Source: Candidatus Poribacteria bacterium (GTDB lineage Bacteria > Poribacteria > WGA-4E > JAJDTR01). Taken from it: a stretch of DNA of 64,000 bases. Position 1 is the stretch's first letter. The number at the start of each line of letters is the position of its first letter. Below are positions 2,380-56,722 of the stretch, one piece after another. Both the position numbers and the translations under genes were made by a program. The stretch is from positions 2,944,001-3,008,000 of the forward strand of contig CBDCTK010000002.1 in assembly GCA_965222225.1 (NCBI GenBank). The letters are read 5' to 3'. The notes under the pieces were generated by a model that did not search any database, was not told the origin of the DNA, and was given only the letters and a program-made list of their open reading frames with translations.

Positions 2380-3843
2380 GTGCCTCGACCGAATATCATT
2401 CTCTTCCACGCCGAAAGCTGGGATGGCCGCATGCTCGGCTGTGCCGGACATCCGGCGCTCCGTCATGCCACGCCGAACGTCGACCGCATTGCGGAGTCCG
2501 GCGCCTTCTTCGAGAACGCCTACTGCACCCACCCCATCTGCTGCCCGTCGCGCGCCAATATGTGGTCGGGGCGGTACACGCACCATTGCGAGAGTTGGAA
2601 CAACTTCAAAGGGCTTGAGCCGGGGATGTGGTCGCTGCTCGGCGAACTCCCCAAAACCCACGTCGTCGGGAATTTCGGGAAGCTGGATTACATGTCGGGG
2701 AGTCACTCTCAATCGGCGCGGCTCGGGGCGTGGCTGGCTACCAGCGGAATCAACAAGCCGAACTTCGACAAGGACAAATCGCAGTGTTTCAGCGTGGAGC
2801 CGAGTGATGAAATACGCTGTCATCAGCGCGATTGGGATTACGTTGACGGGGCGGTGGACTTTCTGAAACAACGCCGGGAGGAGCCGTTTTTCCTGTGTAT
2901 CAGCCCGGGGCTCGCCCACGCGCCGTTCCGAACGAATCGCCATTGGCTGGACCGGATCCCGGAGGAGGCGGTCGATATCCCGGCTATGGACAGCACCGAC
3001 CATCCGGTTCGATTGTATCAGCGCATGACCAAGGCGTGGCGCTACGGGTTGGACGAATCGGTGGTGCGGCAGGTACGCCGAATCTACTTCGCCATGTGCG
3101 CCGAGGCGGATGCGCTCGTGGGACGGGTGTACGATGCGGTGCGGGCGCTCGGTTTGGCGGAGAACACGTACTTCGTCTTCGCGAGCGACCACGGTGAGTT
3201 GGCGTTGGAGCACCAAGAGTGGTACAAGATGTCTTTCTATGAAGGTTCCGTTCGCGTGCCGCTTATCGTCACGGGGCCCGGTGTTGAACGCGGACTTCGC
3301 TTATCGAATCTGGTGTCACTCATCGACATCTGCCCGACCTTCATGGAGATGGCGGGGCTGCCGCAGCCGGAAATGCTTGACGGCGAATCGCTGTTGCCGC
3401 TGGTCACCGGAGACACCATCGAGAGCCGCGACTCGGCTTATGCCTGTTTTACGGGCATCACGCTCAACACGTCGGGTTATATGCTGCGGAAAGGCGAGTG
3501 GAAATATGTGGCGTATGTCGACTATCCGGCTCAGTTGTTCAATATCGAAACCGATCCGGGGGAACTGGACGACGTGTGCACGGAGCGACCCGATATCGCT
3601 GCCCGGATGGATTCGGAGTTGCGCTCCATCGTGGATTATGAGCAGACGCATCGGGACCTGCTCGCATACAACAAGGAGGCGTTCCGGCAGTGGCGGCGTC
3701 AAGCCTTGCGGGGCTTGCACCTGGATCAGCGCTACGCGCTAGAGAACAACCCGTCAACCGACTATTGGAGGATTATGGACAACTGTTTCACGGGATATAA
3801 CGAGGATGACGAGGAATTGGTTAACCAGTGGTTGGAGGCGTGA
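2380..3843 (+). CDS. Formylglycine-dependent sulfatase (choline-sulfatase-like)
   Basis: PNIILF N-terminus, CCPSR motif, SDHGE, YEGSVRVPLI. Confidence 0.9.
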   Translation: MPRPNIILFHAESWDGRMLGCAGHPALRHATPNVDRIAESGAFFENAYCTHPICCPSRANMWSGRYTHHCESWNNFKGLEPGMWSLLGELPKTHVVGNFGKLDYMSGSHSQSARLGAWLATSGINKPNFDKDKSQCFSVEPSDEIRCHQRDWDYVDGAVDFLKQRREEPFFLCISPGLAHAPFRTNRHWLDRIPEEAVDIPAMDSTDHPVRLYQRMTKAWRYGLDESVVRQVRRIYFAMCAEADALVGRVYDAVRALGLAENTYFVFASDHGELALEHQEWYKMSFYEGSVRVPLIVTGPGVERGLRLSNLVSLIDICPTFMEMAGLPQPEMLDGESLLPLVTGDTIESRDSAYACFTGITLNTSGYMLRKGEWKYVAYVDYPAQLFNIETDPGELDDVCTERPDIAARMDSELRSIVDYEQTHRDLLAYNKEAFRQWRRQALRGLHLDQRYALENNPSTDYWRIMDNCFTGYNEDDEELVNQWLEA

Positions 3844-4034
3844 GAAGCAGTGGCCAGTGGCTAGTGAAGCGGAGATCCGCGCGTGATGGGAGGAAGAGGA
3901 CGAGGGGAAGGGTGGTAAAGCAGACAACGGGAAAACGAGTGAACGAGAAAACGGGAAGGGGGGAAGGTTGTAAGAGTGGAAGGAAGAAACCGAGTTTTGA
4001 GGAAAAAACTCGGTTTCAGCTTTCAGAGGCTGGT

Positions 4035-4071
4035 GGGATCTCTATCGCGCTCCCTATTCGGTCACTTGATC
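4035..4071. repeat. Covarying ~37-nt hairpin element inserted in a REP palindrome
   Basis: GGGATCTCTATCGC-gc-TC-cc-TATTC-gg-TC-ac-TTGATC splits ggctggtgg|gcagtgcgcaccctaca; compare the intact REP at 9898-9923. Confidence 0.85.
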
Positions 4072-4118
4072 GCAGTGCGCACCCTACAAATATACTCGAA
4101 TATTGCAGAGGAAATCAT

Positions 4119-4598
4119 ATGATTTCCGAATCTGAAGGGGTGGAGTCGCTGCGCGGGCGGCATTGGCAATTCACTGACATCGGACTTACGCCCAATCAGA
4201 CGCATCAACTCGCGGGGGTTTCCGGGGCGTGCCTCGAAATTGAGGCGGTCATTGACCCGGGCAGCGCGAGGGAGTGTCGGCTAGGGGTGCTATGCGGGGA
4301 CAATGACAGGGAGCAGACACCCATCGTTTATGACGCAGAGAGGAGGTCAATCTCACTGAAGGGAGTGAATGATGCTTTGGATTTGGCGGCGGGCGAATTT
4401 CTGAGGTTGCGGGTGTTTATCGACCGGTCGTTGGTGGAGGTGTTCGCGAATCGGCGCGTATGTCTGAGTGCGTGGTCGTATCCGCGTCAGGAGGAAGGAG
4501 GATTTGTGAGGTTGTCGGCTGTCGGGGGGCGTGCGCTGGTGAAGTCGATTGATGTTTGGGAGATGGGAGGAAAGCAGTGGTCTGTGGTCAGTGACTAG
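4119..4598 (+). pseudogene. Isolated GH32 C-terminal beta-sandwich domain (probable gene relic)
   Basis: LRLRVFIDRSLVEVFAN motif. No catalytic propeller is present upstream, and the longer ORF from 3828 only translates repeats. Confidence 0.65.
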
Positions 4599-4769
4599 TG
4601 GTGAAAGTGGGAAGGATGGAAGGGGAGGAAGACGGGAAGAATGTAAAACAGTGGGCAGTGGCTAGTGGTGAGAGCGGAAGGGAGGAAGAGGGAGATGCGG
4701 TGCTGGGTTTCACCGGGAGCCGTATCAATCAACCTACGGGCTGAGAATGAAAGTCGGAGGACATGACTA

Positions 4770-6014
4770 ATGAGAGAAACGGATTTTGTGTTGGACGGAA
4801 CCCTACGCTCGGATGGAGCATCAATTCGCGACGTAGGGTCGAATCATTTCAGATTGACGCTGGGGCGTGTACCCCAACCCACGATGGCTACGGCGCAGAT
4901 TCCGCCGCATCTCGGAAAGCATTATCCGGGGCGGCAGGAGGGTTGGGCAAACTGGGTGCGATTCGAGATTGCCCGCAACCCCAAGGGGAACGCACTTCGG
5001 CTTGATGTGGAATTCGACGCGCCCGAAGAGTGGGGCACATTTCGCTCGCAAAAGGAGGGCGGCGTGCCGTATCCGTTCACAAACTACGATCCGTGCTGGT
5101 CTTACGACGGGGAGGAGTGGAGGTATATCTCGTGGGAGGAGGATTTTGTTCCGGGACGCGCGGGGACGCTCATCTTTCCACCGTTCGAGCAGGATCGGGT
5201 GCTGGTTTGCACGCAGTTACCGATGACCGTTGAGGATGCGGAGGCGATGCTTGCGGAGTGGCAAGAACACCCGCATGTGGAGGTGCATATTCTCGGGGAG
5301 TCGATCGGGGGGCGGAAACTTCATCGCGTGACCATCACCGATCCGCAGGGAAACGTGCCGCCTTCACGCCGCTGGGTGCATCATGCCGCCAATCAGCATC
5401 CGGGCGAAGGGGTGTCGCAGTGGTACATCGCGGGAATGGTAAAGTGGTTCTTGAGCGATGAGGCGGCGGAGGCACGCTCTTGGACGATTGGGCATTTCAC
5501 GCTCATGATGAATCCCGACGGCGTCGACCATGGGTGGTGCCGCGTCAACGCGCAGGGGATTGATAGTAACCGGAATTTTCGGGTGGAGGGGTCTGATCAG
5601 GCGCTCCAGCCACATGAGGCGTTCATCTTCCAGCGAGATTTTGAGTCGCTCCTACACTCCGATGCTCCGGTGACGACGAGTTGGGCGATGCATTCGTCGC
5701 CATCGGCAAAACTGTCACCGATGTTGGTTGGTCGGGGACCGGAGTTGCGGGGCGTGTTGGGGCCTGACGAGGATTTCGGGGCGTTGTTGAAGGAGCGTGA
5801 TCCGAACAACTTGATTAACGACTATCGTGAGCATCATAGGGGAGTGACGCCGGAGTGCTTTTGGGACGGGGGACCGCATCATGCGTGGGGTATCACAACG
5901 TTTCTGGTTGAGGGAGGCGGAAAGGGTCTTAACAAAGCGCAGGCTATCGAGGCTGGGGGTATTCTTATGCGGGCGCTTACGGCGTATTATGCTGGGGATC
6001 AACTGAGCGGATAG
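4770..6014 (+). CDS. M14-family zinc carboxypeptidase-like protein
   Basis: QHPGE (HxxE), MNPDG, DSNRNF and a downstream His (AMHS). Confidence 0.8.
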   Translation: MRETDFVLDGTLRSDGASIRDVGSNHFRLTLGRVPQPTMATAQIPPHLGKHYPGRQEGWANWVRFEIARNPKGNALRLDVEFDAPEEWGTFRSQKEGGVPYPFTNYDPCWSYDGEEWRYISWEEDFVPGRAGTLIFPPFEQDRVLVCTQLPMTVEDAEAMLAEWQEHPHVEVHILGESIGGRKLHRVTITDPQGNVPPSRRWVHHAANQHPGEGVSQWYIAGMVKWFLSDEAAEARSWTIGHFTLMMNPDGVDHGWCRVNAQGIDSNRNFRVEGSDQALQPHEAFIFQRDFESLLHSDAPVTTSWAMHSSPSAKLSPMLVGRGPELRGVLGPDEDFGALLKERDPNNLINDYREHHRGVTPECFWDGGPHHAWGITTFLVEGGGKGLNKAQAIEAGGILMRALTAYYAGDQLSG

Positions 6015-6030
6015 CGAAGACGATAGAGAT

Positions 6031-6116
6031 GGTGGGCGGTGCCCACCCTACAGAGGTCGCGACCTGGAGAGGGATTTCTATCGCACTCCTTATTCAGTCG
6101 CTTGATCGCTCCTACA
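6031..6116. repeat. Two REP-like palindromes, the second split by a hairpin element (6071-6107)
   Basis: ggtgggcggtgcccaccctaca, then gtcgcgacctggaga[element]gctcctaca. Confidence 0.8.
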
Positions 6117-6181
6117 TAGGAAGAAAGGGTATCGGGGATTCGGTGACTGCCGATCCCGCCCTGCACAGAGGAGGTTTGGGA

Positions 6182-7522
6182 ATGAACACTGTATTTCAGA
6201 TTATACCGTGTCAGGTTCAATTCGGCGTTATAATGTTGGCGGCTCTGGTCGCGTATCTGCTGTTGGTTTCGGCGGGGTGTGTCGATGACATAGATAATCT
6301 GGCGGGACCGAAGCCTTTGGTCGTTACAGCGATTGACGGCGCGGCGTTGCAGAAGGCGATGGATCGGCATACGGGCAGGACGGTGCGTATCAGTGAGCCG
6401 ACGACGATAACCTGCTCCGTGTTGGAATCTGTCGTCGGCGATGAAATCTCGCGGCATGCGCTGCTGATTCCTCCGGGTATCGAGCTTGACCTGAACGGCA
6501 GCACGCTGACCCTCGATCTCCGTTCCAACTCGCACGGCGTCAGGCTCTCCAGCAATTCCGCCATTCGCAACGGGACAATCCGGGTCGTGCACAGCGAGGG
6601 CAAAGGGTCGCAGGCGATTTGGCATTCGGGCATCAGCGTGGGCGCTCCGTACGACGATGGCGGCACGCCCGCGAAGCCGAGTTATTTCTCCAAAGTGTCC
6701 AACTGGCGGATCGAGGATATCACCATCGATCAGCAGGTGGAGGCGTCCGCTATTCAACTGATGTCCGAGGCGTGTTTCGGCGTGATCCGACGCGTTCGGA
6801 TTCTTGATTCTTCGAAGGCGTTGATCGGCATTGGATTGGACTGGGGGAGCGTCGGGAAGGTGACCACGGCGGATGACCAGATTCCCCGTATGCGCGAGCT
6901 GTGGGAACGGGGTGAAATCTATAGCACGCACCCGCATGACATTCTGATTGAGGATATCCGTGTCGGGCATCTCACGCGGAATGTTGACGGCAACGACGCC
7001 GGAGTCCGCTGCTCGGCGTGTTACAATATCCAGATCCGAAACCTGCAGGTGGCGTCGGCGGCGACCGCGGTGGCGATTTTCGGCGGGGACTGCGGTTTTG
7101 AGTTTGCGCCAATATCACTTCGTCCGTTGGCTCACGCGGGATACGAGATTGATAGCGTGGTGATTGATACGGCGTTCCGTTACGGGATTGTGTTGAACGG
7201 GTTGGCGGACAATGTTTATCGGTCAAGCGAGAATTACGGTTATGAAACGCTGATTGATACGGCGCATCCCGGATTGAATCGCGTGGTGGTGAGTGACTGC
7301 CGGCTGAACGGCGGGGGCACGCCGAACAATCAGGGCATCTTTATCACGGCGGTTACGGAGGCGGAGGTGCGGAATGTAGTGGTGGAGGGGTTCGGGATGG
7401 GAGCGAGAATCAAGAATTGGGTGAACGGATTGCGTTTTGTGAATTGCGATTTGGCTCGGAATAATGAGCCGTATACGGTTCTTAGCACCGTCGAAGCGCC
7501 GAGGAATTTGGTGTTTGAATAA
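6182..7522 (+). CDS. Probable lipoprotein with right-handed beta-helix (pectin-lyase-like) fold
   Basis: GAGGAGG RBS, LVSAGC lipobox-like motif, repeated I-x-I-E-D-I / I-R-N beta-helix strands. Confidence 0.6.
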   Translation: MNTVFQIIPCQVQFGVIMLAALVAYLLLVSAGCVDDIDNLAGPKPLVVTAIDGAALQKAMDRHTGRTVRISEPTTITCSVLESVVGDEISRHALLIPPGIELDLNGSTLTLDLRSNSHGVRLSSNSAIRNGTIRVVHSEGKGSQAIWHSGISVGAPYDDGGTPAKPSYFSKVSNWRIEDITIDQQVEASAIQLMSEACFGVIRRVRILDSSKALIGIGLDWGSVGKVTTADDQIPRMRELWERGEIYSTHPHDILIEDIRVGHLTRNVDGNDAGVRCSACYNIQIRNLQVASAATAVAIFGGDCGFEFAPISLRPLAHAGYEIDSVVIDTAFRYGIVLNGLADNVYRSSENYGYETLIDTAHPGLNRVVVSDCRLNGGGTPNNQGIFITAVTEAEVRNVVVEGFGMGARIKNWVNGLRFVNCDLARNNEPYTVLSTVEAPRNLVFE

Positions 7523-7676
7523 TGGTGGCGAAGCCATTTTTAGTGATTTGAGATACTACACACCTTTCGCATCGCTCGTGCTTTCAAAGGCTGATCGGGA
7601 GTGCCCACCCTACAGGGTCGCGATCGGGAGATTGTTCCTACAGACAATCAAAGCGGACGGAAAAAAGCTATCGCAC

Positions 7677-7713
7677 GGGATCTCTATCGCACTCCTTGTT
7701 CAGTCGCCTGATC
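7677..7713. repeat. Covarying hairpin element
   Basis: GGGATCTCTATCGC-ac-TC-ct-TGTTC-ag-TC-gc-CTGATC. Confidence 0.85.
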
Positions 7714-7756
7714 GCTACTACAATCGAAACCCGAGTCCGCGTGCACGACGCTGTTG

Positions 7757-9652
7757 ATGAAATCCAACACTTCCGCTCAACTTAGGCTTAAAGTTGCCCT
7801 CCTCGTCGCGCTGTTAATTCCGCTAAACGCCGCGTTTCAGATGCAGCCGGGCTTGGCGCACATGTCGATGATCTCGCTGCTCTACAACGCGGTCACAATT
7901 CTGTTCGTTCTGGTGGCGTTCAGCCGTCTCATTGAGAAATTCCTTCCGAAACTTGCGCTTTCCCGCGCCGAGTTGCTCTCGCTTTATGTGTCGGTCTCCC
8001 TATCGACGTCAATTGGCGGGCACATGTGCGTGCAGATTCTGATCTCCGTCATCAGCTACGCCTTCGCGTTCGCGACGCCGGAGAACGACTGGCAGGCGCT
8101 GTTCTGGAACTACATTCCCGAGTGGCTGTCGGTCAGAGACAAGGGAGCGCTGGATAACCTGTATCGCGGGGACTCCACGCTGTACCTCGCGCCGCACATC
8201 AGGGCGTGGTCGCCGCCGATGTTCGTGTGGGGTTGTTTTCTGTTTGCGCTGTTTTCGGTGATGTTGGCTATCAACTTCATCCTGCGGAAACAGTGGACGG
8301 AAAACGAGAGGCTGAGCTATCCGCTTATTCAGTTGCCGCTGGAGATGACAAGCCGGAGGCGCAGCTTTTTCGGGAGCAAGGCGATGTGGATCGGCTTTGG
8401 CGTCGCCGCGTTTATTGATCTGCTCAACGGGTTCAACCATCTCTTTCCGCAGATACCGCGCATCGGTCTCACGCGCTCTAGGGAAAACGACCTCGCCGAC
8501 CTGTTTACCATCCATCCTTGGGATGCCATTGGCTGGTTGCCGGTGGGCATTTATCCGTTCGCTGTCGGCTTGGCGTTTTTCATTCCGCTGGATCTGTCGT
8601 TCTCGGTCTGGGTGTTTTACCTGTATTGGAAACTTCAGCGGGTCTTGGGGAGCGCTTTTGCTTTGCCGCACGGGTTTCCGTATGCCTCGGAGCAGTCGTT
8701 CGGCGCTTACGCCGGTATCGGGGTGATGGGGCTCTGGGCGGCAAGGAGGCATCTGGTTCAGGTCGCCAGAAAATGCTTGGGGGTGAGTTCGCGCGTCGAC
8801 GATGCCGATGAACCGCTGTCGTATCGCGGGACGGCAATCTGGCTGCTGGCGAGTTTGGCGTTCCTGTTCGCGTTCTGTCATCGGGCAGGGATGTCTTTCT
8901 GGGTAATCGCCCTATTCTTCGGGCTGTATTATATGTTGGCTATCGGGATTACGCGGGTGCGGGCGGAGCTCGGCTCGCCGGTGCATGATCAGCATTTTGC
9001 CGGGGCGGATGAGATGACGTATGCTTTTGCCGGCGCCAAGCCGCTCGGCACGAGCAATATGACGATGCTTTCTTACTTCTACTTCTTTAATCGGGCATAC
9101 GACTGCCTGCTGATGCCGCATCAGCTCGAAGGGCTGAAGATTGCCGAGCGGGCGGATATTCAGTATCGGCGGTTCGGGGGCGTCATGGTCTTTGCAACGG
9201 TGCTGGGTATCGCCACGTCGATCTGGGGGTATCTGCATTTTGCCTATCAGGGTGAGATTAACACCGGTTGGGCGGGCGAAGAGGCGTTCCAGCGGCTTGA
9301 GGGTTGGCTGGCGCATCCGTCGGGGACAAATGGATCGGTTATCACAGCGATCGGCGTCGGATTTTTGGTGTCGGTCGCGCTGACGCTGATGCGGGGGCAA
9401 TTTCTTTGGATGCCGTTGCACGCGGCTGGCTATGCCGTCACCACGACGTGGACGATGAATTTTTTCTGGTTCTCTATCTTCGTCAGCTTTGTGTTGAAAT
9501 GGCTGATTGTCAAGCACCGCGGGCTGCGGGGTTTTCGCAGGGCGGCGCCGTTTTTTCTGGGGTTGGTGCTTGGCGAGTTTGTGGTTACGACGTTTTGGGG
9601 GGTGTTCGGGATAGTCACGGGGCAGTCGACGTATATTACGATTGATATGTAG
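7757..9652 (+). CDS. Polytopic membrane protein, DUF6785/DUF6784-like (putative transporter)
   Basis: About 14 hydrophobic segments; LRKQWTENERLSYPL, RVRAELG and GLVLGE motifs. Confidence 0.7.
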   Translation: MKSNTSAQLRLKVALLVALLIPLNAAFQMQPGLAHMSMISLLYNAVTILFVLVAFSRLIEKFLPKLALSRAELLSLYVSVSLSTSIGGHMCVQILISVISYAFAFATPENDWQALFWNYIPEWLSVRDKGALDNLYRGDSTLYLAPHIRAWSPPMFVWGCFLFALFSVMLAINFILRKQWTENERLSYPLIQLPLEMTSRRRSFFGSKAMWIGFGVAAFIDLLNGFNHLFPQIPRIGLTRSRENDLADLFTIHPWDAIGWLPVGIYPFAVGLAFFIPLDLSFSVWVFYLYWKLQRVLGSAFALPHGFPYASEQSFGAYAGIGVMGLWAARRHLVQVARKCLGVSSRVDDADEPLSYRGTAIWLLASLAFLFAFCHRAGMSFWVIALFFGLYYMLAIGITRVRAELGSPVHDQHFAGADEMTYAFAGAKPLGTSNMTMLSYFYFFNRAYDCLLMPHQLEGLKIAERADIQYRRFGGVMVFATVLGIATSIWGYLHFAYQGEINTGWAGEEAFQRLEGWLAHPSGTNGSVITAIGVGFLVSVALTLMRGQFLWMPLHAAGYAVTTTWTMNFFWFSIFVSFVLKWLIVKHRGLRGFRRAAPFFLGLVLGEFVVTTFWGVFGIVTGQSTYITIDM

Positions 9653-9711
9653 CCAGTGGGGAAGGAAGGATGGTCAAGATTCCGAGTTGAAGGGTTGGTA
9701 ATTGTCTGAAT

Positions 9712-9839
9712 GGGATCTCTATCGGGATTTACTATCGCCTTCGCTATCCACTCAGTTGATCGGATTAAGGGATTTCTATGGAATCTCTATCGCAGTCATT
9801 ATCCATTCCTTTGATCGCTCATTATCCATTCGCTTGATT
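9712..9839. repeat. Cluster of nested covarying hairpin elements
   Basis: Copies at 9724-9761, 9780-9816 (inner) and 9769-9838 (outer), plus a 5' stub. Confidence 0.85.
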
Positions 9840-9901
9840 GGCACCGTCTTTTATCCCGCTTAAATGTACAAAGTCGAGCTAAGGCGTTATTACAAAAGGC
9901 T

Positions 9902-9923
9902 GGTGGGCAGTGCCCACCCTACA
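9902..9923. repeat. REP-like palindrome, GTAGGGTGGGCACTGCCCACC family
   Basis: GTAG plus hairpin. Other copies near 6031, 7600, 13127, 25842, 36403 and 44496. Confidence 0.85.
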
Positions 9924-10049
9924 GAAAACTACAGGAGATTGATTTCACTTGACATCGCGCCCTTTGTTCGCTTATCGTGTTTAGTTAAATTCACCTTATT
10001 TTGCAGTGATTCTGGGAAACGACACTATTCGTTTTAGAGGTACATTGTT

Positions 10050-13000
10050 TTGGCGAATCCTTTCTTCGATCAGCCCATCCTCAACTCGCCCTACGAGCCC
10101 CCAAGCCGTCATTGGGAGCTGGATGCGTCGGGACAGCCAACCCAGAATAGAATAGACAACCGAAGGCGGGCAGAATTCATCACGCCGGTGCCCAAGCCGA
10201 AGAAGCGAAGGCGATCCTCCTCTAAACAAACGGACATCATATTCGACGAAGGAAAGGGACTTTCAACTCAGCAGCAGCAGTACCACACGGCGATTATCAA
10301 TGAGGTGCGCCAATTCGTTGACCAGTGGCGAAACATCCCGAACTCGAACCAATGGCAGGTGACGCCCGAGACTGCGCTCTTGCTTCAGCATTGGCGGCAC
10401 CATCAATTCAGCGGTATCCGACCCTTTTTCTGCCAAGTCGAAGCCATGGAAACCGTCATCTGGCTCACCGAGGTTGCGCCGCGCATGAGTCAAGTCGGGA
10501 AGCGCTTCCTTGACCACCTCAAGAACGCCAACAACGACGCCAATCCGGAGCTATCACGGCTGGCGCTCAAGCTGGCAACGGGCGCCGGAAAGACCACGGT
10601 CATGGCGATGTTAATCGCTTGGCAGACAGTCAACGCCGCACGGCGTCCGCAGAGTGGAAGGTTCACGCGCGGTTTCCTTGTGGTTACCCCCGGCATCACC
10701 ATCAAGGACCGGCTGCGTGTGCTGCAGCCCAACGATCCGGACAGTTATTACCGGAGCCGCGAGTTGTTGCCAAGCGACATGCTTCCCGACTTGGAAAAGG
10801 CGAAGATTGTCATCACGAACTACCACGCCTTTAAGTTGCGCGAACGTACGGAACTCTCCAAGGGCGGCCGCGCACTGCTTCAAGGACGAGGGCAGCCCAT
10901 CACGACCCTGGAAACCGAGGGACAGATGCTGCAACGGGCGATGCCCGAACTCATGGGAATTAAGAATCTCATGGTTCTCAACGATGAAGCGCATCACTGC
11001 TACCGCGAGAAGCCGGGCGAGCCGGACGAGGAAAAACTCACGGCGGATGACAGGCAGGAAGCCAAGAAGAACGCGGAAGCAGCCCGCCTCTGGATTTCGG
11101 GGCTAGAGATGGTGGGCAAAAGGCTCGGCATCAACCGCGTGATGGATCTCTCGGCAACGCCGTTTTTCCTGCGCGGCTCAGGCTATGCCGAGGGCACCTT
11201 GTTCCCTTGGACGATGAGCGACTTCTCGCTCATGGATGCCATCGAATGCGGGATTGTCAAGCTGCCGCGGGTGCCGGTAGCGGACAATATCCCCGGCGGC
11301 GAGATGCCCAAGTTTCGCGAGTTGTGGAAAAACATAAGCGCCGACATGCCGAAGAAGGGGCGGGGCAAATCCAAAGATCTCGATCCGCTGAGTCTGCCGG
11401 CGGTACTCCAAACGGCGCTTGAGGCGCTGTACGGGCACTACGCCAACACCTTCGAACTCATGCAAAAGGCGAAGATAGATGTCCCGCCCTGCTTTATTGT
11501 CGTTTGCAACAACACGTCGACATCCAAGCTGGTCTACGACTACATTTCCGGTTTCCACCGTGAAAACGATGATGGCTCAACAACCTTGGTAGACGGGCGA
11601 CTCGAACTGTTTCGTAACTATGACGAGTACGGCAACCAGTACGCCCGACCGCGTACACTGTTAATCGACAGCGAACAGTTGGAATCCGGCGACGCACTAG
11701 ACAAAAACTTCCGCAAGATGGCGAGCGACGAGATTGAGCGCTTTCGGAGGGAGATTATCGAGCGCACCGGCAATCGCGAAGCGGCGGACAAAATCACGGA
11801 CCAAGAACTCCTGCGCGAAGTGATGAACACGGTAGGCAAACCGGGAACTCTCGGGGATTCGATTCGCTGCGTGGTTTCGGTGTCCATGCTCACCGAGGGA
11901 TGGGATGCCAACACCGTCAGCCACGTGCTCGGCGTTCGCGCTTTTGGTACACAGTTGCTCTGCGAGCAGGTTGTCGGTCGGGCGCTGCGCCGCCAATCCT
12001 ACGATCTCAATGATGCTGGTTTATTCGACGTGGAGTACGCAGACGTATTGGGGATACCCTTCGACTTTACAGCGAGACCCGTTCCTGTCATACCCAAGCC
12101 ACCTAAGCCAACTATTCAGGTGAAGGCGATGCGGCCCGAGCGGGATGCGCTTGAAGTTCGATTCCCGCGGGTAGCGGGTTATCGTGTAGAGTTGCCCGAG
12201 GAGCGGCTCAACGCCGAATACAACGACGACTCGGTGCTGACACTCACTCCAGAACTTGTCGGTCCGTCGATAACGAGGAACGAAGGAATTATCGGCGAGG
12301 GCGTCGATCTCAATCTGATTCACACCGGCGACCTCCGCCCCTCGACGCTATTGTTTAAGCTCACGCAGCGGTTAATCTTTACGAAGTGGCGGGATACGGG
12401 CGAAGAACCAAAACCCCATCTCTTTAATCAACTCAAGCGCATCACAAAGAGGTGGCTCGACGGTTATCTCGTCTGCAAGGGGGGAACCTATCCCGCCCAA
12501 CTCATGTACCAAGAGTTGGCTGACATGGCATGCGAGCGCATAACGGCTGCCATCACACGAAAGGAAATCGGCAGGCGTCCCGTCAAAACGGTGCTCGACC
12601 CCTACAACCCTACCGGCTCCACCGCCCACGTCAGTTTCAGCACCTCCAAGACAGACCGCTATAAAACGGATTCTCGCCGCTGCCACATCAACTGGGTCAT
12701 TCTTGATAGCGACTGGGAGGCGGAGTTCTGCCGCGTGGCGGAATCCCATCCGCGCGTCAAAGCCTACGTCAAGAATCACAACCTCGGTCTTGATGTGCCC
12801 TACCGTTACGGGTCGGCCACGCGGACGTACCTACCGGACTTTATCGTCCTCGTCGATGATGGGCACGGCGAGGACGACCTCTTGCGCCTCATCGTTGAGA
12901 TTAAAGGTTATCGCGGAGAGGACGCCAAGGACAAGAAATCCACGATGGAAACGTACTGGGTTCCCGGCGTAAATCTCCACGGCAGCTACGGGCGCTGGGC

Positions 13001-24338: not shown

Positions 24339-24764
24339 ACTGCCGCGGCAATTGTAGGAGCGATCTCCAAATCACGACAGGTCGAGAATCGGAAGTTGGT
24401 TTTCACTTGGATTTCCGAGGCATCAATTGGAGCGGATACTCCGGATGCAATTCATAGTCTCGGTGTTATCGGAAAATTCCTTTCAACCCAACCTACGGGC
24501 TGGCTCGCTATCCTCGGGTTGATCTCTATAGGAAACTCATCACTCTCCACTAGTCACTGCCTCCCCACTCCCCACTGTCTCTCCACACAATGTGCTTGAC
24601 TTTTGTCGCAAGCGCCGCTATGATGTTTACCAATACGCTAGCGCACGTTGACAACAGTAGTAGGGTGGCGCCGCCCGCCATTGCTTGTTCGGCACCATAA
24701 ATCCCTGCATCTTAACTCGCCACTCTCCACTAACCACTGCTCTTACCATGCAAGGGGTTCGTGT

Positions 24765-36342: not shown

Positions 36343-36570
36343 TGGTGTGAGGTAGCTTAGAATTACTATACACCTTTCGTGCCGCTGGCGCTTTCAAAGG
36401 CTGGTGGGCAGTGCCCGCCCTACAGGAGTTGTAAGTTCTCTAAAATGACAGTACATCAATGGCGTGAGTTAAAGTCGCGATTCGGAGATCGCTCCTACAG
36501 ACAGGACGTGGAATGAAGGACCTATTTCCGATTTGAGGATTGCAGATTTTCTTTGGAGTGGAGGTTTTAA

Positions 36571-37965: not shown

Positions 37966-38271
37966 AGTGAGTTTTGGTATTGTAGTTTATATTGCGGGGT
38001 GATTAGGGGGATAGGATTGGAAGGATGGAAGAGCGGAAGGGCGGAAGATTTCGTTTCATGCCGTCCTCGAAATGGAACGTTTAGAGCGTGTTAAGTTATG
38101 GATCAATTTATGGCCCTGTGTTGCTCCTACGGGGGAGAGGTCGCGATTCGGAGATCGCTCCTACAGAAGACGCGCAATAAAGTGTTGAAGTTTATATTGT
38201 GAAAAGGGGAAATTGTCATGTCGGCTAAACATCTCAATAACAGACGGAACAAAGGTAACGGAGGCTATCGG

Positions 38272-40088: not shown

Positions 40089-40260
40089 TCTATAGTCATT
40101 GTGATTAAGAATTACACATATGGGATTCGCTCGGATCGGTTTGTAGTAGCACAATTTATTGCGCGTCTTCTGTAGGAGTGAGTTCTACTCGCGACAATGG
40201 GTCGCGATCGGGAGATCGCTCCTACAGAAATGTGAAATTCTTAGTTGTAATGACTATAGA
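40089..40260. mobile_element. MITE-like element with ~30-bp terminal inverted repeats enclosing REPs
   Basis: TCTATAGTCATTGTGATTAAGAATTACACA versus the reverse complement of 40231-40260, TCTATAGTCATTACAACTAAGAATTTCACA. Confidence 0.55.
40201..40226. repeat. REP-like palindrome, GTAGGAGCGATCTCCGAATCGCGAC family
   Basis: Other copies near 7617, 24354, 36474, 38140 and 50396; interrupted copies at 6056, 44402 and 56445. Confidence 0.8.
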
Positions 40261-44409: not shown

Positions 44410-44446
44410 GATTAACCGACCGAATAGGAAGGGCGATAGAGTTCCC
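44410..44446. repeat. Hairpin element inserted in a REP
   Basis: gtaggagc[GATTAA-cc-GA-cc-GAATA-gg-AA-gg-GCGATAGAGTTCCC]ctccgaatcacgac. Confidence 0.8.
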
Positions 44447-50359: not shown

Positions 50360-50450
50360 TTGTTGTGGGAGGGGATTTCGCTTCCCGTCAATACGTCGCG
50401 ATTCGGAGATCGCTCCTACCGTGCTCGTTATTCACTCGGTTGATGCCAAC

Positions 50451-56272: not shown

Positions 56273-56533
56273 GGGATTTGCTATCAAGACTTCCTATCGC
56301 CTTCACTATTCGTTCAGTTGATCGGTTGGAAAGGGATCTCTATGGGAGTTCTATCGCGCTCCTTATCCAGTCGCTTGATCGCAGTGCGCACCCTACAGGA
56401 TTGTCCAGAGAAGAAACCGAGTTTTGAAGAAAAAACTCGGTTTCGTCGCGAGCTGGAGAGGGATCTACTATCGGGATTAGCTATCGCCTTCGCTAGCCAC
56501 TCAGTTGATCCCTCGTTGTCCACTCGGTTGATC
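56273..56533. repeat. Largest cluster of hairpin elements (at least 4 copies) interleaved with REP halves
   Basis: Copies end at TTGATC near 56323, 56380, 56510 and 56533. The palindrome aagaaaccgagttttgaagaaaaaactcggtttc is shared with 3984-4018. Confidence 0.85.
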
Positions 56534-56722
56534 TCCTACAGAACCGGGCGTGCAGTGAATGAGGTGCAATTGTTCTGCAGCAACAGGAGATTGTTGTTGA
56601 CCGAAAATTGCCTACCGGGTAAAATGGTACGAGTAATTTAAAAAGGATTTGGATTCTTTGTGGCGACTTTCAAGACGATATTTCGCGACGTATTCAACTA
56701 TCAACTCCAAGGAGATTGATTT

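Follow-up and report, generated by a model that had tools for sequence, protein, structure and literature searches.

In the 64,000-nt stretch of a Candidatus Poribacteria genome analyzed here (contig CBDCTK010000002.1, positions 2,944,001 to 3,008,000; hereafter, the window), a dispersed repeat of 37 nt, termed E, was found inserted into repetitive extragenic palindromes (REPs) and other hairpin-capable sequences. The insertions leave no target duplication, share bases with the target at one end, and close less exactly at the other. E seems to be a mobile element of a new, very small kind that targets hairpins. We tentatively regard it as a non-autonomous mobile element of 37–38 nt, defined by one folded single strand, which we call F. 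For the mechanism of insertion, polar, microhomology-dependent copy-in or splinted single-strand transfer ranks first among the readings considered, as a possibility still short of probable. F is the reverse complement of the strand used in the first-pass annotation of the window, which had reported a hairpin element inside REP palindromes. That observation was confirmed and its interpretation partly supported, and the model is widened here to all hairpin-forming targets.

On the F strand, E reads 5'-GATCAA-n1n2-GA-n3n4-GRATA-n4'n3'-GA-n2'n1'-GCGATAG-(A/T)RATCCC-3', and a tail variant of 38 nt is common. The fold consists of 2 bp, a tandem G.A/A.G pair, a further 2 bp, and a GRATA loop, between the constant flanks GATCAA and GCGATAG..TCCC. 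The core pattern matched 16 times in the window against 0.22 expected, which establishes the hairpin element as real. In the 5.7-Mb genome, it matched 594 times, compared with a single match for the reversed control, and a relaxed search for the same architecture returned 990 copies. These are dispersed and do not form a regular array with unique spacers; the true CRISPR repeat of the genome is a different 37-nt sequence. Rfam gave 0 matches at an E-value ≤ 1 for window positions 3500–10500, and the viral contigs searched for E yielded no match.

The structural assignment comes from covariation in 482 distinct E copies, which were chosen on the constant parts alone. The four variable stem pairs were Watson–Crick in 68–89% of the copies, as compared with 30–48% after shuffling (maximum 54% in 200 shuffles). 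Three to four pair types occur at each variable stem position, and the remainder of E is constant. Among the 990 copies, we counted 460 distinct 17-nt hairpin cores, which implies that many different E copies have propagated with the pairing kept. Read on the F strand, the non-canonical stem pairs comprised 237 G.T against 51 A.C. The constant internal GA/GA would form a tandem G.A pair on F and a TC/TC mismatch on the opposite strand. Tandem G.A pairs are stable. The excess of G.T over A.C and the possibility of GA/GA pairing therefore identify F as the structurally constrained strand.

Some variant arrangements were observed as well. Derivatives of 26 nt without the inner stem-loop (GATCAAGCGA-GTGCGATAGAAATCCC) were seen four or more times genome-wide, and tandem arrays with a period of 38 (GCGATAGTCTTGTAGGATCAA..) place GTAG directly before E. 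In another recurrent genome-wide layout, the reverse complement of an E copy's own head comes immediately after that copy (..TTGATCGATAGAGATCCC), giving a long inverted repeat.

The E copies of the window, together with the intact REPs, are given below; a caret marks a junction.

4035–4071, minus strand: REP-A split by E 17 nt from the GTAG start (second GCG^CAC site); 35-nt net insert (ATCAA..GATCC)
5997–6033, plus strand: E-like copy without the CCC tail, overlapping the 3' end of the open reading frame (ORF) at 4770–6014 and abutting an oppositely oriented REP-A2; common to the sister species G005
6071–6107, minus strand: E copy in REP-B (GTAGGAGCGA^..^TCTCC); 35-nt net insert whose boundary slides 2 nt; orthologous site empty in G005
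7677–7713, minus strand: E copy adjoining GTAGTAGC.., followed by an orphan E 3' piece
9725–9816, minus strand: two E copies (9725–9761 and 9780–9816) with nested pieces; one copy common to G005
9898–9923, minus strand: intact REP-A2 (GTAGGGTGGGCACTGCCCACCAGCC), a sister variant of REP-A
24354–24368, plus strand: intact REP-B copy
36484–36498, minus strand: intact REP-B head (GTAGGAGCGATCTCC)
38150–38164, 40211–40225, and 50405–50419, minus strand: intact REP-B copies
44410–44446, plus strand: E copy in REP-B; 34-nt insert TAACCG..GTTCCC at GCGAT^CTCC, slide 0; orthologous site empty in G005
56344–56380, minus strand: REP-A filled with E at its 17-nt site, with more E 3' pieces after it
56456–56534, minus strand: REP-B with E, inside which a second E (56474–56510) sits after G24 of the outer copy; the REP lacks ~3 nt

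In F orientation, the copy at 4035–4071 reads gtagggtgcgcactgc^GATCAAGTG..GAGATCC^caccagcc. This is a split REP-A for which exact empty paralogues exist. The sequence at 9898–9923, taken earlier for its intact form, proved to be the variant REP-A2, though 97 intact REP-A copies are present genome-wide. REP-B has the sequence GTAGGAGCGATCTCC..TCGCGAC, and the copies at 6071, 44410, and 56460 split it as described before, with intact REP-B at 36484–36498, 38150–38164, and 40211–40225. The E-like copy at 5997–6033 supplies the last codons and the stop of the ORF at 4770–6014, and the gene end differs in more distant relatives. A terminator-like hairpin (AAACCGAGTTTTGAGGAAAAAACTCGGTTTC) at window 3983–4020 is itself a repeat, with 97–100% identity in other genera of the order, E-free genomes included.

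Empty sites were found in both orthologous and paralogous positions. G005 is ~89% identical in genes, and its orthologues of the window sites 6071 and 44410 carry an intact REP-B where the inserts here measure 35 nt and 34 nt. Comparison of this genome (G000) with 1.2 Mb of G005 provided 181 anchored locus pairs, some of them paralogous and not orthologous because the flanks are repeats themselves. Their length differences clustered at 0 (55 pairs, shared copies), at 32–37 nt (33), and at 67–72 nt (10). Within the genome, an exact empty paralogue, defined by an 11+11 nt match across the junction, was present for 157 of the 990 copies, with a modal insert of 35–36 nt. After the filled/empty comparisons were collapsed, 45 distinct clean target contexts remained. 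This catalogue detects pure insertions only; comparisons that tolerate mismatches reveal target loss.

The clean contexts follow a simple rule at the left (F 5') junction. The first G of E was contained in the insert in none of the 45. The target ended in G (17 contexts), GA (25), GAT (2), or GATC (1), and the insert supplied the rest of GATCAA, so the merging of the TTGATC end with the target, which had been noted as frequent, was seen in every context. Where only G is shared, the E tail is 1–2 nt short and the target goes on with C or T in all 17 contexts; where GA is shared, the tail is complete. The total of shared bases is thus usually two. E of the 37-nt type thereby adds 35 nt net and that of the 38-nt type 36 nt, with an overall range of 33–36 nt. 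None of the 45 clean contexts and neither of the two orthologous sites showed a target duplication, in agreement with the earlier claim. The right (TCCC) junction overlaps the target by 0–2 nt, and some targets lose 1–3 nt; in filled REP-C, 13 of 14 copies have a gain of 33, with the loop CAT replaced and ~3 nt lost. To this extent, the GGGA end is ragged as reported, but the end of E is otherwise well defined. The boundary slide was 0 in 27 of the 45 contexts, which disfavors recombination at a core dinucleotide. Beyond GATC, the terminal GATCAA and GATCCC share no inverted repeat. The same REP-A site held six different inserts in six copies, and five different inserts in seven, indicating independent hits.

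Besides GTAG-type REPs, E targets CRISPR repeats, hairpins resembling terminators, its own copies, and some unique sequence. The REPs are enriched as the first-pass annotation supposed, but its picture of REPs as the targets is too narrow. The counts for the individual families are as follows.

REP-A: 97 intact, 22 filled with E
REP-A2: 25 intact, 7 filled with E
REP-B: 105 intact, about 12 filled with E
REP-C: 14 intact, 13 filled with E

A GTAG within 20 nt upstream on the same strand accompanied 273 of the 990 E copies, compared with 1437 of 20000 random G positions outside ORFs, so that E is enriched 3.8-fold beside GTAG heads. Counted from the GTAG start, position 1 of E (G1) falls on nt 10 in 106 copies, on nt 9 in another 39, and on nt 17 in a further 36. 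The nt-9 copies sit in REP-B, with the junction still after nt 10, and the nt-17 copies occupy the second GCG^CAC site of REP-A. REP-A with both sites filled recurs as a composite unit with a period of 41 nt. Inserts inside REPs are nearly all full length, and 5'-truncated ones are rare. The junction itself has a sequence preference, R-S-G(A), which was absent from the earlier account. Measured on copies anchored only by CAA..GCGATAG (n = 536), position 1 was G in 493 and position 2 was A in 520; the base before position 1 was C or G in 483 copies, and the base before that was G or A in 444. Reconstructed empty sites were only modestly more structured than random intergenic 50-mers (–10.3 versus –8.5 kcal/mol, P about 7e-13).

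E also enters itself. An exact remainder was found 25–260 nt downstream for 201 of 417 E 5' pieces versus 51 of 417 in the control, with a modal gap of 34–36 nt, and the reciprocal test on 3' pieces gave 244 of 434 versus 58. The orphan pieces amounted to 190 of 434 for the 3' side and 216 of 417 for the 5' side. CRISPR repeats beside cas1 are interrupted by E in both orientations, at a locus outside the window.

G000:C2:2702874–2709700: cas1 (Pfam E-value 1.4e-69), followed by cas2/cas4-like ORFs and a CRISPR array

The repeat of this array is the 37-nt GTAGCAACCATTGCCSCGAYGAAAAGSGGACTGAAAG, and E interrupts several copies of it. Around 25 E copies fall inside 4 kb of the cas1 region, where a ~130-nt unit is repeated four times between E copies. 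Since E is abundant beside cas1, Cas1–Cas2 was considered as the E integrase; it was rejected, as E lies inside the repeats in both orientations with no repeat-length duplication.

Insertion is polarized, as had been claimed. The F strand was co-oriented with the GTAG head of the REP in 252 cases and opposite in 35; nested copies had the orientation of the host E in 57 cases, the opposite in 17, and an unclear one in 7. Of 788 copies, 551 (70%) had F on the strand that is locally richer in C. This bias held by context (REP, 168:55; nested, 194:77; other, 189:105), and the REP families of this genome carry the same bias. The orientation of E relative to the direction of flanking genes showed no bias with the crude gene calls used. 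The cumulative GC skew of contig G000:C2 is irregular, with several sign changes, which points to rearrangements or assembly joins at repeats. Given this profile, we refer to local skew only, and leading and lagging strands are not confidently named. The missing duplication, the left-junction identity, the less exact right end, and the polarity together exclude DDE transposition.

E and the candidate enzymes were counted across 91 genomes of the order.

Genus g1: E in 10/10 genomes, 529–1216 pattern matches per genome
Genus g4 (another family): E in 4/4 genomes, 184–202 pattern matches per genome
G059: one genome, 19 pattern matches
G010, G041, and G043: three genomes, 1–3 pattern matches each
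Remaining genomes of the order: 73 genomes, 0 pattern matches

In a species-representative genome collection, all 80 E loci listed, of at least 125 stretches, belonged to Candidatus Poribacteria. The E tail in genus g4 reads GCGATAGTCTT...

With these results in hand, we consider how E may insert. A new copy enters the strand that bears the REP GTAG head, at a 3' end reading R-S-G or R-S-G-A. The site lies inside hairpin-capable DNA: CRISPR repeats, terminator-like hairpins, the stem of E itself, or REPs, in which the usual point is after nt 10 counted from the GTAG start. In the reading ranked first, the event would take place on single-stranded DNA at the replication fork. At the left junction, the target 3' end may pair with the end of a discrete E strand or of its complement, and primed copying or splinted strand transfer would then run from the GATC end to the TCCC end. 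The right junction closes with an overlap of 0–2 nt, at times with 1–3 target nt lost. A trans-acting, hairpin-recognizing protein would set the donor ends, and nicks in REP hairpins may contribute. The first-pass annotation had preferred target-primed synthesis or single-strand transfer to DDE transposition. DDE transposition is excluded and a single-strand process fits; the copy may be made by synthesis or by strand transfer. We consider it unlikely that the process is a new mode of moving DNA, in which a 37-nt hairpin strand would be written into stalled or nicked fork hairpins by end-pairing of at least 2 nt, either without a transposase of a known family or through an unrecognized hairpin-binding enzyme. 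If this were true, E would be a hyper-parasite of REP/RAYT systems (RAYT, REP-associated tyrosine transposase) and CRISPR arrays.

Several points weigh against copy-in or splinted transfer. Thermodynamic folding of E gave –0.8 to –3.6 kcal/mol on both strands, with z-scores that were not significant, so that covariation is the only basis we claim for the structure. Truncated inserts, which are expected of abortive copying, are rare in REPs. Copying from the GATC end implies that the template is the complement of the structure-bearing strand. The pure-insertion catalogue under-counts target-loss events and may exaggerate the regularity of the overlap. No free E strand, E RNA, or polymorphic allele was seen in contig-only public runs; we list this here, yet it is no evidence either way. 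In four such runs (Logan contigs), the joints listed, 15 of 242, were all cross-joins between repeat copies, with no 33–37-nt skip among them. Finally, no enzyme followed the distribution of E among the candidates profiled, which were Y1e, Y1a, the AbiA-type reverse transcriptase, and a tyrosine recombinase; among the five Y1_Tnp genes of the genome (Y1a–Y1e), profiling over the 91 genomes covered Y1a and Y1e. Y1e, a RAYT-type gene, is a fragment here and adjoins E, and its intact orthologues in five relatives are flanked by GTAG REPs; the E copies near Y1e are therefore insertions into those REPs. Y1a, which is IS200-like, occurs in 59 of the 91 genomes, including 28 of 44 E-free genomes of family f2, and is missing in two of the four g4 genomes. 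The AbiA-type reverse transcriptase is present in only five of nine g1 genomes and one of four g4 genomes, and the multi-copy tyrosine recombinase has close relatives in the E-free G053, G035, and G051.

The flanks of the Y1 genes were also inspected, and none of the five has an inverted E pair as its cognate repeat. A different hairpin repeat stands on either side of Y1a, REP-B flanks Y1c, and Y1b and Y1d lack an E pair. Y1a is an intact gene for 157 amino acids (aa) at G000:C2:3080255–3080752, located between inverted CCTGT-CGCCCC..GGGGCTT hairpin repeats, one flank of which is E-filled; these repeats belong to a longer composite repeat (..CTGCTACATACCTGT^CCCGCTGGGGCTTTTAGAGGCTGGTGCGCAGTGCGCACCCTACA). 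Y1c, a RAYT-type gene at G000:C2:3088793–3089350 with an internal TAG stop and inverted REP-B flanks, is probably the decayed RAYT of REP-B. The sole reverse transcriptase of the genome, the only RVT_1 match, is the AbiA-type one (PADLOC E-value 4.2e-76). This defense enzyme of 670 aa (G000:C2:4499563–4501572) is patchy in relatives, and several orthologues contain stop codons. The genome has 12 tyrosine-recombinase matches. The family, of 316–328 aa (G000:C2 460216, 1313884, 3335583, 3989320, 4161168, and others), comprises five paralogues of 80–88% identity, two of ~57%, and three fragments, and up to 10 matches are found in the E-free G053. The E copies near these genes have no constant arrangement. 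The IS110 transposase domain PF01548 was not found in the genome, with a control that matched in 6 of 14 genomes. A search for Y2_Tnp gave no match, but its control matched nowhere, so this search is uninformative.

A somewhat unlikely alternative, which we rank second, is a Y1/HUH transposase of the RAYT or IS200/IS605 type. It would read the E hairpin, cut at guide-specified sites, and paste E 3' of R-S-G(A) on single-stranded fork DNA; E would then be a REP-like element in which GATC replaces GTAG. Insertion without duplication 3' of a short motif agrees with this, as does a hairpin that combines conserved unpaired or mismatched bases with freely varying pairs. E shares the replication-strand bias and the strand of the GTAG REPs, the genome has its five Y1_Tnp genes, and GTAG directly precedes some E copies, both here and in genus g4. 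According to the available portion of PMC3479197, the dinucleotide at which the E. coli RAYT cuts is specified by two bases within the 5' tetranucleotide GTAG; by this logic, T3-C4 of GATC would specify G^A, the left boundary of E. Some REP families are reported to lie within small palindromes, as far as the accessible part of PMC3733652 goes, which would also suit this alternative. The poor match between the Y1a and Y1e families and the distribution of E argues against it, and target bases are sometimes lost. Furthermore, the boundary moves with the target (G^ATCAA, GA^TCAA, GAT^CAA) and the tail shortens in step, whereas known Y1 transposases cut at fixed positions. RAYT nicking at C^T was rejected as a source of the target nick, the REP-A, REP-A2, and REP-C sites being G^C.

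E may also have multiplied as a passenger. A few primary events would have been amplified by RAYT-mobilized, E-bearing REPs or larger repeats, or filled REPs would have converted empty ones by short-patch recombination or copy-choice. The site and orientation are constant within each REP family, identical composite units recur (e.g., the doubly filled REP-A with its 41-nt period), and the same +33 junction is seen in 13 REP-C copies. Such hitch-hiking nevertheless accounts for only part of the copy number: the variants held at one REP site differ by compensatory pairs (six of six and five of seven distinct), the 45 distinct contexts include unique sequence, CRISPR repeats, and E itself, and orthologous REP-B sites are empty in the sister species. 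We treat it as a contributor and consider it improbable as the principal explanation.

Reverse transcription of an E RNA at a nick, i.e., true target-primed reverse transcription, is very improbable. The microhomology at the F 5' end, the pyrimidine tail at the F 3' end, some orphan 3' pieces, and the single reverse transcriptase gene are in its favor. This AbiA-type enzyme is, however, absent from four of nine g1 and three of four g4 genomes, where E copies number in the hundreds. REPs rarely contain truncated inserts, orphans of the 5' and 3' kinds are equally common, and hundreds of different copies would each need transcription and exact trimming.

A site-specific recombinase acting on folded DNA, either of the IS110 type (bridge-RNA) or a tyrosine recombinase, as for REP-targeting insertion sequences (ISs) or integron attC sites, is disfavored and scarcely plausible: IS110-family elements do enter REPs at fixed positions with no or 2-bp direct repeats (PMC1525189, in the portion available) and the tyrosine recombinases are numerous, but the IS110 domain was not found in the genome, a shared core dinucleotide predicts a 2-nt slide everywhere and not the slide of 0 seen in most contexts, and the tyrosine recombinases have both their E-free relatives and no constant E arrangement nearby. 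A circular 35-nt intermediate or shared-core recombination was likewise rejected, as circular permutation does not turn one insert register into the other and the slide is so often 0.

Comparison with known systems places E among the miniature hairpin (REP-like, single-strand) elements, where we file it as a new variant. Like REPs, REPINs (REP doublets forming hairpins), and their RAYTs, it belongs to a class of short (20–40 nt), high-copy, mostly intergenic hairpin repeats with covarying stems, and its strand bias is that of the REPs in this genome. It differs in opening with GATCAA, without a GTAG or CGTC head, in a stem of four Watson–Crick pairs around a tandem G.A, in the lack of a Y1 gene flanked by E as cognate repeat, and in nesting inside REPs with boundaries that adapt to the target. 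GTAG directly precedes few E copies (5–7 nt, 58 of 990), where it is part of the host REP or of a variant. As the tests for a GTAG head and for a cognate flanked RAYT were both negative, E is placed outside the REP/RAYT family. Target-primed and template-switch insertions, which include those of non-long-terminal-repeat retroelements and microhomology-mediated templated insertions, leave polar junctions that show microhomology on one side and are inexact on the other, and they make no duplication of fixed length. E resembles them in all four respects, but it has no co-distributed reverse transcriptase, its inserts are nearly all full length, and its donor has defined ends and a unit length of 37 nt. 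Stem-loops are the homing targets of class C group II introns (after terminators) and integron cassettes (attC). E shares their preference for hairpin-forming targets and lacks intron or cassette features and an integron-type core site. Unlike miniature inverted-repeat transposable elements and DDE transposons, it has no terminal inverted repeats and no fixed-length target duplication.

With the IS200/IS605 elements, as characterized in the available part of PMC3479197, E has in common the absence of target duplication, insertion 3' of a short motif, hairpin dependence, and a replication-orientation bias. E has a single hairpin instead of the left and right subterminal ones, is far shorter at 37 nt, has no fixed cut positions, and loses 0–3 nt at its right end; a TnpB domain search of this genome found none. 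REPs are known as fixed-position targets of ISs (PMC1525189, again from the portion available). These ISs (ISPa11, ISPpu9/10, and IS621 of the IS110 family; IS1397 and ISKpn1 of the IS3 family) resemble E in using a fixed REP position, one orientation, and no or 2-bp direct repeats. They are kilobase elements that encode their own transposase, in contrast to the 37 nt of E, which also enters non-REP hairpins and itself. No account of a 37-nt element without GTAG, nesting in REPs, in CRISPR repeats, and in itself under this junction rule, turned up in the portions of the literature available to us.

Adding only 35 nt net, E would rank with the smallest mobile units on record, yet it reaches 529–1216 pattern matches per genome in one genus. 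Its junction rule predicts that at least two nucleotides are shared, that the left end is fixed, and that the right end is looser. Nested E repeats give rise to assembly breaks in Poribacteria genomes. By breaking CRISPR repeats, E insertions may disable spacers in these sponge symbionts. As its targets are other selfish or defense repeats, namely REPs, CRISPR repeats, and E itself, the element offers a natural system for layered genomic parasitism and for the attack on hairpins at the replication fork.

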